Source: Escherichia coli 042 (GTDB lineage Bacteria; Pseudomonadota; Gammaproteobacteria; Enterobacterales; Enterobacteriaceae). From it: a DNA stretch of 64,000 nt. Each line of letters opens with the position of its first letter. Position 1 is the first letter of the stretch. The stretch lies in assembly GCF_000027125.1 (NCBI RefSeq), contig NC_017626.1. One strand, written 5' to 3'. This document shows positions 15,216 to 56,756 of this stretch, in pieces. Both the position numbers and the translations under genes were made by a program. The notes below the pieces were generated by a model. The model was not told the DNA's origin. It ran no database searches and saw only the letters and a program-made list of their open reading frames with translations.

Positions 15216-15282
15216 GTTTGGGTTCAAGATTAGCCCCCGTGATGTTGTCAGGTGCATACCTGCAACGTGCGGGGGTTTTCTC
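15216..15282 (+). ncRNA. rdlD: Rdl antisense RNA (antitoxin), copy 1; coordinates approximate
   Basis: Plus-strand candidate promoter ttgtaa-N17-tattct at 15181-15209, transcript ending at hairpin cccccgt...acgtgcgggggttttct (~15271-15282); antisense to the ldr mRNA leader. Confidence 0.4.
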
Positions 15283-15542
15283 TCTCCAGCAACCAATGCC
15301 ACCAGGGATTAAGCCCCCGCAACATTGCGCCTCACCGGAACCCTTCCGGCTTGCCGCTGATTCTACGGCCATTTTTGTTCGTCGAAATCCATCACTTCTT
15401 CACTCTGTGCTGCGCATTCCGCAGAATATTATCCGCTTGCAGCCGTTGCATTTTTCTTACGAAAAAGGCCGCAGAGTTTCACCTCTGCGGCCTGGTCCGG
15501 GCGCAAATTGCCATTACGGCAGCCTGACGCCCGTCTGACACG

Positions 15543-15650
15543 TTACTTCCGCTTATTCAGCCAGTTCACGATCATGCTGGCAAGAATGCCAGCAATGACC
15601 GGAGCCGCTAAATCATGCCAGAAGGCCATGCCCAGCTCTGCGAGCGTCAT
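15543..15650 (-). CDS. ldrD: Ldr type I toxin peptide, copy 2 (35 aa, ...AGILASMIVNWLNKRK)
   Basis: Hand translation; ATG at 15648-15650, stop 15543-15545; absent from ORF track because the extended ORF is under 60 aa. Confidence 0.8.
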   Translation of the reverse strand: MTLAELGMAFWHDLAAPVIAGILASMIVNWLNKRK

Positions 15651-15698
15651 ATAGCCGCCAGTGTTGTAATGACAACGTTTCGCGGCTATTCTTGAGTT

Positions 15699-15765
15699 GT
15701 GTAGGTTCAAGAATGGCCCCCGTCATATTGTCAGGTGAATACCTGCAACGTGCGGGGGTTTTCTC
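15699..15765 (+). ncRNA. rdlD: Rdl antisense RNA, copy 2; placed by 483-bp periodicity
   Basis: Same offset from ldr stop as copy 1; homologous sequence with the same terminator hairpin. Confidence 0.35.
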
Positions 15766-16025
15766 TCTCCAGCAACCAATGCCACCAGGGATTAAGCCCC
15801 CGCAACATTGCGCCTCACCGGAACCCTTCCGGCTTGCCGCTGATTCTACGACTGTTTTTCTGTTCCGAAATCCATCACTTCTTCACTCTGTGCTGCGCAT
15901 TCCGCAGAATATTATCCGCTTGCAGCCGTTGCATTTTTCTTACGAAAAAGGCCGCAGAGTTTTATCCCTGCGGCCTGATCCGGGCGCAAATTGCCATTAC
16001 GGCAGCCTGACGCCCGTCTGACACG

Positions 16026-16133
16026 TTACTTCTGCTTGTTCAGCCAGTTCACGATCATGCTGGCAAGAATGCCAGCAATGACCGGAGCCGCTAAATCGTG
16101 CCAGAAGGCCATGCCCAGCTCTGCGAGCGTCAT
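16026..16133 (-). CDS. ldrD: Ldr type I toxin peptide, copy 3 (35 aa, ...MIVNWLNKQK)
   Basis: C-terminal 35 codons of ORF 16026..16268. Confidence 0.85.
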   Translation of the reverse strand: MTLAELGMAFWHDLAAPVIAGILASMIVNWLNKQK

Positions 16134-16181
16134 ATAGCCGCCTCTGTTGTAATGACAACGTTTCGCGGCTATTCTTGAGTT

Positions 16182-16248
16182 GTGTAGGTTCAAGAATGGC
16201 CCCCGTGATGTTGTCAGGTGCATACCTGCAACGTGCGGGGGTTTTCTC
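16182..16248 (+). ncRNA. rdlD: Rdl antisense RNA, copy 3; placed by periodicity
   Basis: Same offset as copy 1. Confidence 0.35.
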
Positions 16249-16508
16249 TCTCCAGCAACCAATGCCACCAGGGATTAAGCCCCCGCAACATTGCGCCTCA
16301 CCGGAACCCTTCCGGCTTGCCGCTGATTCTACGACTGTTTTTCTGTTCCGAAATCCATCACTTCTTCACTCTGTGCTGCGCATTCCGCAGAATATTATCC
16401 GCTTGCAGCCGTTGCATTTTTCTTACGAAAAAGGCCGCAGAGTTTCACCTCTGCGGCCTGGTCCGGGCGCAAATTGCCATTACGGCAGCCTGACGCCCGT
16501 CTGACACG

Positions 16509-16616
16509 TTACTTCCGCTTGTTCAGCCAGTTCACGATCATGCTGGCAAGAATGCCAGCAATGACCGGAGCCGCTAAATCATGCCAGAAGGCCATGCCCA
16601 GTTCTGCGAGCGTCAT
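16509..16616 (-). CDS. ldrD: Ldr type I toxin peptide, copy 4 (35 aa, ...MIVNWLNKRK)
   Basis: C-terminal 35 codons of ORF 16509..16751. Confidence 0.85.
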   Translation of the reverse strand: MTLAELGMAFWHDLAAPVIAGILASMIVNWLNKRK

Positions 16617-16664
16617 ATAGCCGCCTGAGTTGTAATGACAACGTTTCGCGGCTATTCTTGAATG

Positions 16665-16731
16665 GTCTAGATGCAAGAATGGCCCCCGTGGTGTTGTCAG
16701 GTGCATACCTGCAACGTGCGGGGGTTTTCTC
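16665..16731 (+). ncRNA. rdlD: Rdl antisense RNA, copy 4; placed by periodicity
   Basis: Same offset as copy 1. Confidence 0.35.
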
Positions 16732-16991
16732 TCTCCAGCAACCAATGCCACCAGGGATTAAGCCCCCGCAACATTGCGCCTCACCGGAACCCTTCCGGCT
16801 TGCCGCTGATTCTACGGCCATTTTTGTTCGTCGAAATCCATCACTTCTTCACTCTGTGCTGCGCATTCCGCAGAATATTATCCGCTTGCAGCCGTTGCAT
16901 TTTTCTTACGAAAAAGGCCGCAGAGTTTTATCCCTGCGGCCTGATCCGGGCGCAAATTGCCATTACGGCAGCCTGACGCCCGTCTGACACG

Positions 16992-17099
16992 TTACTTCTG
17001 CTTGTTCAGCCAGTTCACGATCATGCTGGCAAGAATGCCAGCAATGACCGGAGCCGCTAAATCGTGCCAGAAGGCCATGCCCAGCTCTGCGAGCGTCAT
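16992..17099 (-). CDS. ldrD: Ldr type I toxin peptide, copy 5 (35 aa, ...MIVNWLNKQK)
   Basis: C-terminal 35 codons of ORF 16992..17267. Confidence 0.85.
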   Translation of the reverse strand: MTLAELGMAFWHDLAAPVIAGILASMIVNWLNKQK

Positions 17100-17147
17100 A
17101 TAGCCGCCTCTGTTGTAATGACAACGTTTCGCGGCTATTCTTGAGTT

Positions 17148-17214
17148 GTGTAGGTTCAAGAATGGCCCCCGTGATGTTGTCAGGTGCATACCTGCAACGT
17201 GCGGGGGTTTTCTC
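17148..17214 (+). ncRNA. rdlD: Rdl antisense RNA, copy 5; placed by periodicity
   Basis: Same offset as copy 1. Confidence 0.35.
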
Positions 17215-22974: not shown

Positions 22975-23072
<98 letters not shown>

Positions 23073-24748: not shown

Positions 24749-25267
24749 AACCCTTTGCAGTGGGTTGTCGCTGCCTGACCTTTTTTGTTTTTTGCCCGGT
24801 CGGGTCAACGTTATGAGGTGGGGATGCCGTACTAATTAACATCAGTGTAACAGTGCGGATCCTCCATAAAATGCCCCTCGTGACCTACAATCTGTCAACA
24901 GAATGTGAAAACGTCAATACAGCCAACCGGGATTTACACCAACGGTGAGAATCCACAAACAAAGATTAAAAAAACTTCAAACAGCTATTTGCAGCAGAGA
25001 AATTTGTGCTACTCCAACATGACCAGAACAATCAGCTTAATATTTAGCAACAATTGGTGATTAAGTTTTATGCATTTTGTGAAAAAAATCTGAGGAAAAG
25101 GTGGATATCTGAGCGATTAATACCATGAACGCTAAAACGCACAGCGGAAAATGCCAGCGCCAGCCATAAGTAACGCAAAAAAAAATTTAAGCAAATATAA
25201 AAAAAGACAATGGTTTCTGTCACAAATCCGTTAATGGATAGTGAGATATGGGCGCAAATTTGGCAGG

Positions 25268-25356
25268 AAAATGTGTGGTGTGTAGGTCGAATAAGGCGGT
25301 CGCGCCGCATCCGACAATGGGCCGGCACATTTGCCTGATGCGACGCTGGCGCGTCT
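25268..25356. repeat. REP/BIME element (two REP palindromes) upstream of the proK-proximal repeats
   Basis: ggtcgaataaggcggtcgcgccgcatccgaca and gcctgatgcgacgctggcgcgtcttatcaggcctac. Confidence 0.65.
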
Positions 25357-25794
25357 TATCAGGCCTACGTCGAATCGAACCTCCCTGCCCCCGGAAGTTC
25401 TCATCCTCTTCAGGCCGCAGAAAGCAAAAAACCAGCCCGTAGGCTGGTTTTTCTAAATTGGTCGGTGATAGAGGATTACTCGCCACTTCGTGGCTCGCCC
25501 TGCGGGCCGTTGCTGGCGCAACGTTCTCTCGCTTCGCTCGAGTCGAATCTCCCTGCCCCCGGAGGTTCTCATCCTCATAGGCTACAAATGCAAAAAAGCC
25601 TGCTCGCTGAGCAGGCTTTTCGAATTTGGTCGGTGCCAGAGGATTACTCGCCACTTCGTGGCTCGCCCTGCGGGCCGTTGCTGGCGCAACGTTCTCTCGC
25701 TTCGCTCGAGTCGAACCTCCCTGCCCCCGGAGGTTCTCATCCTCATGGGCTACAAATGCAAAAAAGCCTGCTCGCTGAGCAGGCTTTTCGAATT
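25357..25794. repeat. tandem degenerate repeats (~92 + 166 + 168 bp) downstream of proK, each with a terminator-like hairpin, a T-arm-like GGTTCGA motif and a copy of the last ~19 nt of tRNA-Pro
   Basis: tggtcggtg(a/c)(t/c)agaggatt occurs at ~25449, ~25617 and 25795 (the last is the real tRNA 3' end); the intervening sequence is about 97-98% identical between the two full units. Confidence 0.8.
25762..25790 (-). terminator. rho-independent terminator just downstream of proK
   Basis: Minus-strand gcctgctcagcgagcaggc followed by a T-run (tttttt), 5 bp after the tRNA 3' end. Confidence 0.6.
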
Positions 25795-25871
<77 letters not shown>

Positions 25872-25962
25872 AATGCGGGGCGCATCTTACTGCGCAGATA
25901 CGCCCTCGTCAATCCCTTAATAGCAAAATGCCTTTTGATCGGCGAGAAAGTCAGCAGGCCTC

Positions 25963-27654
25963 TTAGTTAGCCGCTGCCTCTTTTGCCTGCGGGATGTGAC
26001 ACCAGTTGTTGTTTTCGTTAATTCCACCATCAGGTGAAGTATAGCCAAGACACCCCATGATGGTGTCGTACAGCTCTACGTGACGGCGTGGCACTTTCAT
26101 GTCGGCTTCTTTTTTCAGCTGCGCAAATGCCTGCGCATTGGCCGGATTTTCCAGATATTTATCCGACATCCAGACCATCATCGGCACACGGAACTGTTCC
26201 GGCGGTGCCAGTTCACGCGGCGTGCCGTGCAGGTGCTCGCGTTCGTTAATTGACTCACCGTGGTCAGCTGCGTAGAACACAATCGCTTTCTTATCGCGAA
26301 CCTGATCAATCACGCTGGAGATAAAGTGATCCACATAGGTCACCGAGTTGTCATAGGAGTTGATCATCTGCGCTTTGGTACAGCCGCTATCAACACCAAT
26401 ACATTCCGGCTTCCACTGCGCAAAGCTGCGCGGGTAACGCTGGGTGTAGTTAAAGTGCGAACCTTTGGTATGCAAAATGATCAGATGCTTGCCATCCGGG
26501 TTGCGCCCCAGCGATTGCTGCATTTCGTCTACCAGCAACATATCATCTACCGGCTTGCCACGGTTACGTGGCTCCGCACCAATCTGCTCACGATAAGCAA
26601 TGTTGTCCGCCATCGTGTTGCTGTAGAACCACATTTCGCTCTGCATAGCGTAGAGGTCAGAACTGAATCCTAACTGCTTCAGCACCGCGAAAATGTTCTG
26701 TTCTTTTAATGTGCGCTGCGGATTATCTTCCGCTCCACCCTCTCGTACAAACATGCAACGCAGAGAAAGTTTGGTCGCCGTGTCACAAGAATAGCCACGG
26801 AACGCCGCCAGATTTTTCTCCTGGGCCAGCTTCGGCGTGGTATTACGCTCATAGCCGAAAATGCCCATATGGTCCCAACGCGTAGTTTCACCGATGATAA
26901 ACACGACATAAGTGTCATCAACGTTTTGCGGTGCCTGATAAGTGAATTTCTTCGCCGGATTAAGCAATGAATTGTTATCGGAAGATTCATCGACCCGCGC
27001 CCAGGCATACAGCCCCAATGCCGAAAGCCAGTTTGATGGCAGATAAGAGTTCGCTACGACGCCGCCATAGCTTGGCAAATCAACACCGGTCGCCCTCTCC
27101 ACTTTCTTCTGCTGGATATCCAGCAAACGAATCGGTGCCCAAACCATAATACCCGCTAGCACGACGACCGCCAGGCTGCGAATACGCTGTCCAGGGGTTC
27201 GCAGCTGTCGGAGCAAGGTGTAACGACAGCGGTTATTCCAGATAAGGATAAGAGGCAATGCACTTACGGCGATTAACCAGAGAATAAAGTTCAGACCAAC
27301 AACTTCTTTTGACAGGTCGATATCGGTGGTCATGACGGAAGCGATGATGCCATAACCAATGACCACATTAAGGAAGGTCATGTAATAGCTGGCACCTGCG
27401 GAAAAGAGCACCACCAGCGACGCCAGAATACGCCAACTGCGGCGGCCAAACAGCGAAAGAAGACGTAGTAAAAAGAAGGTCACCAGTACGGTGGCGGCCA
27501 GTTCAACAACAGCAGAAATGCCTTTCCAGACGGTAAAATCGTGCGCATAGCTGCCGAAGCGGCGGTAAAAAACCGCGCCATTCATAAAAAGGCCAATATA
27601 GATTGCAAGCAAAAAGCTCAGCTTCTGCTGTGTAATCGATTTGATGTATCTCAT
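25963..27654 (-). CDS. eptB: Kdo2-lipid A phosphoethanolamine transferase EptB (YhjW), 563 aa
   Basis: ORF track 25963..27687; start placed at ATG 27652-27654 ([14 protein letters not shown]...); N-terminal TM segments plus sulfatase-like domain. Confidence 0.9.
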
Positions 27655-37029: not shown

Positions 37030-37227
37030 TGTTGCATCACCCGCCAATGCGTGGCTTAATGCACATCAACGGTTTGACGTACAGACCATTAAAGCAGTGT
37101 AGTAAGGCAAGTCCCTTCAAGAGTTATCGTTGATACCCCTCGTAGTGCACATTCCTTTAACGCTTCAAAATCTGTAAAGCACGCCATATCGCCGAAAGGC
37201 ACACTTAATTATTAAAGGTAATACACT
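37030..37227 (+). promoter_or_regulatory. cspA promoter (AT-rich UP element, -35 ttgcat, -10 cttaat) and long 5' UTR with cold-box region
   Basis: ttgcatcacccgccaatgcgtggcttaatgcacatcaacggtttgacgtacagacc... about 160 nt upstream of the cspA ATG, consistent with the known long cspA leader. Confidence 0.6.
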
Positions 37228-37440
37228 ATGTCCGGTAAAATGACTGGTATCGTAAAATGGTTCAACGCTGACAAAGGCTTCGGCTTCATCACTCCTGACG
37301 ATGGCTCTAAAGACGTGTTCGTACACTTCTCTGCTATCCAGAACGATGGTTACAAATCTCTGGACGAAGGTCAGAAAGTGTCCTTCACCATCGAAAGCGG
37401 CGCTAAAGGCCCGGCAGCTGGCAACGTAACCAGCCTGTAA
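37228..37440 (+). CDS. cspA: major cold-shock protein CspA, 70 aa
   Basis: ORF track; [23 protein letters not shown]... with RNP motifs. Confidence 0.97.
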
Positions 37441-37465
37441 TCTCTGCTTAAAAGCACAGAATCTA

Positions 37466-37497
37466 AGATCCCTGCCATTTGGCGGGGATTTTTTTAT
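37466..37497 (+). terminator. cspA rho-independent terminator
   Basis: ccctgccatttggcgggg hairpin followed by ttttttt. Confidence 0.6.
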
Positions 37498-37627: not shown

Positions 37628-37780
37628 TTACTCTTTCAATTTGCAGGCTAAAAACGCCGCCAGCTCATAACTCTCCTGTTTAATATGCAATTCACACAGT
37701 GAATCTCTTATCATCCAGGTGAAAAATAAAAGCGTGAAACAAATCACTATTAAAGAAAGTAATCTATATTTCTGCGGCAT
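37628..37780 (-). CDS. hokA: HokA type I toxin (Hok/Gef family), 50 aa, intact
   Basis: C-terminal 50 codons of ORF 37628..37840: MPQKYRLLSLIVICFTLLFFTWMIRDSLCELHIKQESYELAAFLACKLKE. Confidence 0.85.
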   Translation of the reverse strand: MPQKYRLLSLIVICFTLLFFTWMIRDSLCELHIKQESYELAAFLACKLKE

Positions 37781-37840
37781 TCCCAGCCCCCTGTGTTGAT
37801 TTCCAACGAGTAAGAGGCTAACCTTATGGTGTCTATGCAT
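37628..37840 (-). CDS. mokA: MokA, overlapping reading frame that translationally couples hokA, 70 aa
   Basis: ORF track 37628..37840, co-terminal with hokA as in hok/mok/sok loci. Confidence 0.6.
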   Translation of the reverse strand: MHRHHKVSLLLVGNQHRGLGMPQKYRLLSLIVICFTLLFFTWMIRDSLCELHIKQESYELAAFLACKLKE

Positions 37841-37886
37841 AGAGGGGCCTCACTTTGATTTATAGTCAGGTGGGGCTTTTCTCTGT
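37822..37886 (+). ncRNA. sokA: putative SokA antisense RNA (antitoxin); coordinates approximate
   Basis: Plus-strand region antisense to the mokA start/leader, ending at hairpin gcctcac...gtggggc followed by ttttctct. Confidence 0.3.
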
Positions 37887-38060
37887 CTGCCTTTCGGTGA
37901 ATACCTGAGACAAACAGTCTCAAGCACCCGCAGCTATTCTAGCTTAATAAGTTCGTTTCTTCTCCTTGATATAATCCTAAAAAAATCTCATAAAATTAAT
38001 ATATGAGACAATCTTTATTCAGCAGAAGATTATTAAAGGTTGCTCTATTATTTAGCGATA

Positions 38061-56658: not shown

Positions 56659-56756
56659 GCCTGATGCGCTACGCTTATCAGGCCTACATGATTTCTGCAA
56701 TATATTGAATTTGGTAGAATTTGTAGGCCGGATAAGGCGTTTTAGCCGCATCCGGC
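56659..56756. repeat. REP/BIME element between avtA and ysaA
   Basis: gcctgatgcgctacgcttatcaggcctac and gtaggccggataaggcgttttagccgcatccggc. Confidence 0.7.

Follow-up and report, generated by a model that had tools for sequence, protein, structure and literature searches.

tRNA-linked repeats (TLRs) were first reported as 178-bp repeats at tyrT (Egan and Landy, 1978), and E. coli K-12 carries 22 copies at ten loci (Rudd, 1999), as cited in a later article (PMC8144298). That article gives their hallmark, a 3′-end of 18–19 bp that is identical to the upstream tRNA or rRNA, and puts the number of copies at a locus at one to five. It reports no known function for TLRs; a role in the stringent response was claimed by Bosl and Kersten in 1991 and withdrawn in 1994, according to the same article. 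The TLRs of the rrn operons, rrA, rrB and rrF, follow 5S rRNA, are set between the terminators T1 and T2, are made by read-through, and bind Hfq and CsrA in vitro (PMC8144298). TLRs of tRNA operons were scored below 0.01 for CsrA binding by the predictor used in that article. Another RNA from the region 3′ of a tRNA, 3′ETS-leuZ, is freed by tRNA processing enzymes (PMC8144298); it is a short unique trailer acting as an sRNA sponge, whereas RtT, the RNA family to which TLRs of the tyrT type belong, is repeated and structured, has a tail derived from the tRNA and has no known targets. In the tyrT region of K-12 the order is tyrT, one RtT, tyrV and three further RtT copies, every one of which ends in the tRNA-Tyr 3′-end.

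The repeat units that follow proK in the window, that is, the whole 64-kb stretch of DNA analysed here, are in our estimate TLRs of this RtT family (RF00391), old and vertically inherited passengers in an array whose length changes by recombination or slippage (probability about 0.88). The proK repeats are thus a described and routinely annotated element that is already known: Rfam and PGAP name them, and they are neither a degraded island nor something new. The TLR/RtT family itself is an old curiosity without known function, for which the survey below offers a cleaner start for functional tests: a core found at no fewer than six tRNA species, agreement of the tail, arm and T-stem copy with the local tRNA, six covarying helices, vertical inheritance locus by locus, and a terminator before most copies at tRNAs other than tRNA-Tyr.

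The repeat array downstream of proK

proK is the sole tRNA gene in the window (ARAGORN; Rfam RF00005), and its locus is flanked by eptB and dppA, as judged from the annotation of homologous E. coli records. The features of the locus are as follows.

25884–25912, minus strand: sigma-70-like promoter upstream of proK, TTGACG, 17-nt spacer, TAAGAT (consensus scan, pattern match only)
25795–25871, minus strand: proK, tRNA-Pro(CGG), whose 3′-terminal 19 nt are the template of the tails (ARAGORN; Rfam tRNA, 60.7 bits)
25627–25794, minus strand: unit 1
25761–25789, minus strand: predicted intrinsic terminator 1, GCCTGCT-CAGCG-AGCAGGC and a T-run, directly 3′ of proK (fold −19.6 kcal/mol, z −4.25)
25627–25762, minus strand: RtT copy 1, full length (RF00391, 100.2 bits)
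25627–25645, minus strand: tail 1, 17 of 19 positions of proK nt 58–76, with TAT changed to TGG
25459–25626, minus strand: unit 2
25593–25621, minus strand: predicted intrinsic terminator 2, the same as terminator 1 (fold and unit alignment)
25459–25592, minus strand: RtT copy 2, full length (RF00391, 96.8 bits)
25459–25477, minus strand: tail 2, identical to the 3′-terminal 19 nt of proK (AATCCTCTATCACCGACCA), 0 mismatches
25370–25458, minus strand: third, incomplete unit, a terminator and the first ~50 nt of an RtT element
25426–25453, minus strand: predicted intrinsic terminator 3, CCAGCC-TACG-GGCTGG and a T-run (fold −19.8 kcal/mol, z −5.69)
25370–25425, minus strand: third RtT, incomplete, with the 5′ arm, the GATGAGAA box, helix P2 and GGAGGTTCGA kept, and the core and tail absent
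25285–25365: REP pair (BIME) abutting the third unit, outside the RtT family (Rfam naRNA4, 70.5 bits)

Tandem Repeats Finder (TRF) delimits an array at 25370–25813 with a period of 168, 2.6 copies and 91% matches. Units 1 and 2 differ at 4 of 168 positions (97.6% identity), and the third unit breaks off at GGAGGTTCGATTCGA, where the REP pair starts. Each unit consists of the proK 3′ trailer, a hairpin followed by a U-run, and then an RtT element of ~135 nt that can be divided into four parts. The first is a 5′ arm complementary to proK nt ~59–65. The second comprises the GATGAGAA box and GAACCTCC, the latter pairing with GGAGGTTCGA, which is a direct copy of the 5′ strand of the proK T-stem and half of the T-loop; this motif begins at 25720 and 25384, and at 25552 it has the form GGAGATTCGA. 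The third is a conserved core of ~66 nt with four small hairpins, standing where the T-loop would go on after A58, with a junction that is ambiguous by one A. The fourth is a direct copy of proK nt 58–76, the CCA end.

All three spacers fold into G+C-rich hairpins (−19.6 to −19.8 kcal/mol, z −4.3 to −5.7) standing directly before T6, the arrangement of a Rho-independent terminator. A simple scanner reported no terminator in 25100–26100, which is likely a false negative, the flanking A- and T-runs probably having been absorbed into the stem. In this strain the hairpin of terminator 3 (CCAGCC/GGCTGG) is unlike that of terminators 1 and 2 (GCCTGCT/AGCAGGC); in K-12-type and zero-copy alleles a GCCTGCT-type terminator stands before the incomplete unit.

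This layout confirms what the original prediction described, two units of ~166–168 bp and a degenerate third, each with a terminator-like hairpin and T-run, a T-arm-like motif and a copy of the last ~19 nt of proK. TRF and the unit alignment agree with the former count, the folds and motif positions given above bear out the hairpins and the T-arm motif, and the 19-nt copies are present in units 1 and 2, whereas the third unit has no tail. A short tRNA match no better than chance would have told against that prediction; no comparable match to the proK 19 nt arose in 100 shuffles of the window. The fragments had also been held not to be functional tRNAs, and indeed no tRNA is recognised within the units by either ARAGORN or the Rfam tRNA model, so that they are not tRNA genes. 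Where about 65 nt of unrelated sequence had been described, the units have the conserved RtT core of ~66 nt.

Identity of the units and comparison with tyrT

Both complete units match RF00391 over its full length (model positions 1–130 of 130), scoring 100.2 and 96.8 bits where the gathering score is 45, and RefSeq/PGAP calls the matching positions in other E. coli genomes "RtT sRNA". The signal does not come from the tRNA-derived 19 nt alone, as a pattern confined to the core recovers the elements. The tails agree with the upstream tRNA at 19 of 19 positions in unit 2 and 17 of 19 in unit 1, and two full copies and one incomplete copy lie directly 3′ of proK on the same (minus) strand, as is typical of TLRs.

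A close described relative is the tyrT–tyrV RtT of K-12, including rttR. The two loci belong to one covariance-model family, matched full length, and have the same order of tRNA, spacer and an element carrying the last ~19 nt of the tRNA, in tandem copies. Alignment of the proK and tyrT units gives a common, homologous core from GATGAGAA to TAATCC. The remaining segments are locus-specific: the tail (tRNA nt 58/59–76), the copy of the T-stem 5′ strand with TTCGA (GGAGGTTCGA at proK, AAGGTTCGA at tyrT), the complement of that copy (GAACCTCC and GAACCTT, respectively), and the 5′ arm complementary to the start of the tail (GAGGAT and GGGGAAGGAT, respectively). At proK the tail, T-stem copy and 5′ arm are thus of the tRNA-Pro(CGG) type and not of the tRNA-Tyr type. 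In addition, the unit is 168 bp long instead of 178 bp, the loop of helix P2 is 5 nt longer, and the spacer is a predicted intrinsic terminator before every unit; the tyrT spacer has none, and a hairpin with a T-run precedes the first RtT at 0 of 34 tRNA-Tyr loci among the matches listed.

With the K-12 TLRs in general, as PMC8144298 describes them, the proK units share the 18–19-bp 3′ identity to the upstream stable-RNA gene, the small number of copies per locus and the absence of a known function. Read-through, by which the rrn copies are made, would also be the way in which the proK copies are transcribed.

Array length in E. coli

The eptB–proK–dppA segment was matched in 5425 of 5426 complete E. 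coli genomes. In a rank-ordered systematic sample of 40 records (39 chromosomal), which is neither random nor a census, the matched span is ~800, ~633 or ~465 bp, corresponding to two, one or no full units, respectively, plus the third-unit stub. The two-, one- and zero-unit alleles were found in roughly 3, 16 and 20 of the 39 chromosomal records, respectively. A K-12-derived O16:H48 record is an example of the one-unit allele. When the three alleles are aligned, their lengths differ by exact whole units of 168 bp, and the same stub is present in the zero- and one-copy alleles. Because the alleles differ in exact 168-bp steps, the array changes length via unequal homologous recombination or replication slippage between near-identical tandem units. 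Since about half of the sampled genomes keep the stub alone, the RtT element is dispensable at proK, which argues against an important function there.

Three E. coli genomes with a differing proK–dppA interval were inspected, one with an IS1397-family transposase gene, one with an IS621-family transposase gene beside a rearrangement, and one with two RtT copies and no insertion. In NZ_CM144243.1 and NZ_CP074717.1, the stretch from the RtT array or stub to the following gene contains a transposase gene of the IS1397 or the IS621 family; in the IS621-family allele the downstream neighbour is gldA and not dppA, suggesting rearrangement. Both the IS1397 and IS621 families target REP sequences. The region under study matches only 13 of 5445 records at 99% identity or more, and the window therefore stems from a sparsely sampled lineage.

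Distribution and inheritance of RtT elements

A pattern confined to the core, AGCGAGANANCGTNGCN{7,12}CGNCCCG, which contains no tRNA-derived bases, was scanned over 100,044 species genomes. It gave at least 120 loci, and 100 of the 120 listed carry an RtT (nhmmer). Among the matches listed, the elements lie 13–50 nt behind at least six tRNA species, namely tRNA-Tyr(GUA), Pro(CGG), Pro(UGG), Lys(UUU), Arg(ACG) and Arg(CCG), in many genera of Enterobacterales as well as in Gilliamella, Marinobacterium and Amphritea. The association with the tRNA of proK, tRNA-Pro(CGG), is found in at least 10 genera, and a Salmonella record has 89% identity over the whole 168-nt unit. Again among the matches listed, 96 of 119 copies have an 18-nt tail that agrees with the upstream tRNA at every position, and 109 of 119 have one mismatch or none; against other tRNA classes the tails have 4–7 mismatches, or 1–2 between the two related tRNA-Pro classes. 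The match between tail and local tRNA in this wider sample reproduces the published TLR hallmark. A hairpin and T-run between the tRNA and the first RtT were found, among the matches listed, at 17 of 17 Pro(CGG), 24 of 31 Pro(UGG), 8 of 14 Lys and 2 of 3 Arg(ACG) loci, to be set beside the tRNA-Tyr count given above.

Outside Enterobacterales, the elements were seen in the marine genera Marinobacterium (L017, L072 and L099) and Amphritea (L028). The Marinobacterium copies have tails of the tRNA-Arg(CCG) type, with the tRNA visible upstream in L017 only, and the Amphritea copy sits behind tRNA-Lys(UUU). Both tails of the array in Marinobacterium lutimaris (L017) have drifted from the tRNA sequence.

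When the tRNA-derived parts are excluded, 119 of 130 copies have their nearest core in another genome behind a tRNA of their own class. Between genomes, cores of one class average 0.80 identity and cores of different classes 0.69; different classes within one genome average 0.72. Because the cores cluster by tRNA class and not by genome, we infer that RtT elements are old, vertically inherited residents of each tRNA locus and have not been recently mobile.

RNA structure and covariation

Six helices were tested on an alignment of 130 distinct RtTs: P1, formed by the 5′ arm with the tail; P2, formed by GAACCnnn with nnnGGTTC; and four core hairpins. This set is partly unlike the Rfam consensus, P2 being the case in point. 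The six helices have 89.1% standard pairs, compared with 35–43% when the 3′ partners are slid by 1–3 columns, and 398 cells are changed on both sides, a count that stays at or below 122 when partners are slid. The observed pairing and covariation scores were reached by 0 of 500 shuffles, although such controls fall short of true probabilities when the sequences are related, and the structure under test was taken from a single member of the alignment. Changes on both sides were found in 16 pairs. P1 and P2 vary along with the tRNA class. Among the core hairpins, H3, which is unrelated to the tRNA, has compensatory changes in 5 of 5 pairs and H1 in 2 of 5; H2 (CGTTGC...GCAACG), in which 99.7% of cells are paired, is nearly invariant, and the CCCGnAGGG hairpin is essentially invariant in three of its four pairs.

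In unit 1 of the window, P1 joins 25739–25747 of the arm to 25631–25644 of the tail. P1 or its immediate surroundings hold three of the four positions at which units 1 and 2 differ, namely C/T at 25747 in the arm and GG/AT at 25637–25636 in the tail, and, as read from the sequence, they turn a C-G pair into a U-A pair if a one-base bulge is allowed.

The covariation suggests that the RtT element is under selection for RNA secondary structure. The matching in P1 and P2 could also persist at the DNA level, through template switching at quasi-palindromes or gene conversion from the tRNA gene, and the covariation of these two helices alone cannot separate RNA-level from DNA-level upkeep; H1 and H3 covary outside the tRNA-derived parts. 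H3, in the region of alignment columns 114–131, is deleted (~17 nt) in many Pro(UGG)-linked RtTs, and most of it is missing in three Erwinia copies linked to tRNA-Lys; L069, L122, L052, L045 and L104 are examples of such losses. This hairpin is dispensable, yet it covaries strongly where it is present.

Alternative explanations

The alternative that survives best, although we regard it as quite improbable, is that the proK 3′ flank was duplicated locally in tandem, has no function and persists only through chance and homogenisation at the DNA level. It would account for the polymorphic copy number (0, 1 or 2), with about half of the sampled strains lacking a complete unit, and it sits well with the predicted terminator before each unit and with the lack of a reported function for TLRs (PMC8144298). 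Against a duplication of this kind, a member of the same family is conserved at the tRNA of proK in at least 10 genera, and other tRNAs carry RtTs in hosts as distant as Gilliamella, Marinobacterium and Amphritea. It is likewise hard to reconcile with the compensatory substitutions outside the tRNA-derived parts (all five pairs of H3 and two of five in H1), with the essential invariance of H2 and of three of the four CCCGnAGGG pairs, and with conservation across orders. The original prediction had held a simple tandem duplication in reserve; this was right as to copy number, given the exact 168-bp alleles, but the unit exceeds a mere proK flank in that it holds an element of the RtT family.

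The reading favoured by the original prediction, in which the repeats are a scar of integration and excision by a tyrosine integrase, with every copied tRNA 3′-end a former attL or attR, is very unlikely. Integrases do leave duplicated tRNA 3′-ends, and the T-loop is a known sublocation of crossover. As at such att duplications, a copied tRNA 3′-end lies downstream of an intact tRNA gene at proK, and the break in tRNA similarity falls within the T-loop. An att site, however, is contiguous, whereas the T-arm copy in each unit is split, the T-stem 5′ strand and TTCGA standing apart from ATCC...CCA by the conserved core of ~66 nt. The array also differs from such duplications in its tandem copies at 168 bp and in having neither integrase nor cargo: the 168-bp units alone lie between the copies, a point on which the original prediction was correct. 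The RtT core follows at least six tRNA species with matching flanks, and its clustering by tRNA class across genera marks it as old and vertically inherited. No integrase was found at the three E. coli genomes with a differing proK–dppA interval. The original prediction had named, as evidence against a scar, an arrangement conserved in E. coli with an island never present at the site, and this is essentially what the E. coli sample contains.

Phage and viral sequences lend the scar no further weight. A search of a phage collection with one unit gave no confirmed phage attP, its matches being Salmonella chromosomal contigs and one unannotated 7.4-kb record. When 2.9 million viral contigs (IMG/VR) were scanned with the core pattern, four matches resulted, three of them RtTs, and no confirmed viral copy. 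All three RtTs are near contig ends; in one (L130) the neighbours with family matches are of host type, such as edd, and in another (L131) the neighbouring ORFs have no family match. The RtT hits in both collections are most likely host flank and not viral sequence.

Less credible still is a miniature mobile element, currently active, that targets the T-loops of tRNAs for insertion and makes a copy of the target sequence. The presence of the core at six or more tRNA species with both flanks matching the local tRNA, and a 5′ part that resembles an inverted copy of the local T-arm, are what such an element might leave. Against it, the nearest cores share their tRNA class in 119 of 130 cases, identity between classes is barely higher within a genome (0.72) than between genomes (0.69), no target-site duplication is visible at the core junctions, and real tRNA genes are never interrupted among the matches listed. 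Neither near-identical cores at different tRNA loci of one genome nor sister strains with occupied and empty T-loops were seen. Recent mobility is rejected because the cores cluster with tRNA class.

That the units encode a small basic protein like tpr of the tyrT locus has a negligible probability: arginine-rich ORFs of 54 and 41 aa do begin at a conserved GGATGAGAA and share an RxQRPxGR stretch with K-12 Tpr, but three different frames follow that ATG across tRNA classes, some copies have GTG, no start codon or internal stops, and the indels are not multiples of three, and H3 (~17 nt) is deleted in many copies, so that the inconsistent reading frame among tRNA classes rules out a conserved protein.

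Possible expression and function

RNA polymerase reading through the terminator after proK would be the sole source of RNA from the proK units, because a predicted terminator lies between proK and the first element. With a terminator before every unit, this RNA may be made only rarely. The RtT RNA would then be cut out by the route of tRNA 3′-end maturation, since its tail reproduces the tRNA 3′-end processing site: an endonuclease would cut in the A/U-rich trailer after the CCA, exonucleases would trim back to the CCA, and helix P1, formed by the 5′ arm with the tail, would close the molecule. At tyrT, the support for such read-through and tRNA-like processing consists of the annotation coordinates of K-12 rttR, which begins 8 nt downstream of tyrV and extends to the first tail's CCA, ending exactly at ...ACCA. 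Equivalent processing has been proposed for RrB and RNase E (PMC8144298), and release by tRNA processing enzymes would be a feature shared with 3′ETS-leuZ.

The 5′ third of the RtT element approximates the reverse complement of host tRNA nt ~49–69, with ATTCGAA changed to ATGAGAA, and does so at six tRNA species. In five copies (L024, L085, L035, L075 and L015) the usual GGATGAGAACC is replaced by GG(G/A)(T/G)TCGAACC or TTGAACC. These TCG and TTG variants are near-exact reverse complements of the tRNA T-loop and stem, and suggest that the 5′ part originated from an inverted T-arm copy or is occasionally re-templated as one. It is conceivable, though unlikely, that RtTs or TLRs are tRNA-specific mimics in two parts, the 5′ third being an inverted copy of the T-arm and the acceptor 3′ strand and the 3′-end a direct copy. 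The 5′ arm of such a mimic could have two alternative partners, the tail of the element itself and, in precursors arising by terminator read-through, the 3′ half of the upstream tRNA; the mimic would then act in cis on the folding, processing or decay of the precursor, or titrate a factor recognising the tRNA 3′ half. No description of the inverted T-arm architecture was found in the available literature, which did not extend to Rudd (1999).

Other features of the window

Five tandem matches to the Rfam rdlD antitoxin lie on the plus strand at 15216–17213, beginning at 15216, 15699, 16182, 16665 and 17148 with a period of 483 nt, and make up a five-copy ldr/rdl long-direct-repeat array; at this position K-12 presumably has a single copy, LDR-D. 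The cspA thermoregulator leader (37068–37495, plus strand) is followed by a sok antitoxin match (37778–37929, minus strand), presumably the hokA/sokA locus. Two matches to the ES036 (CssrF) sRNA are present at 23009–23051 on the plus strand and 56680–56722 on the minus strand, at 52.4 and 38.9 bits, respectively, against a threshold of 37.6.
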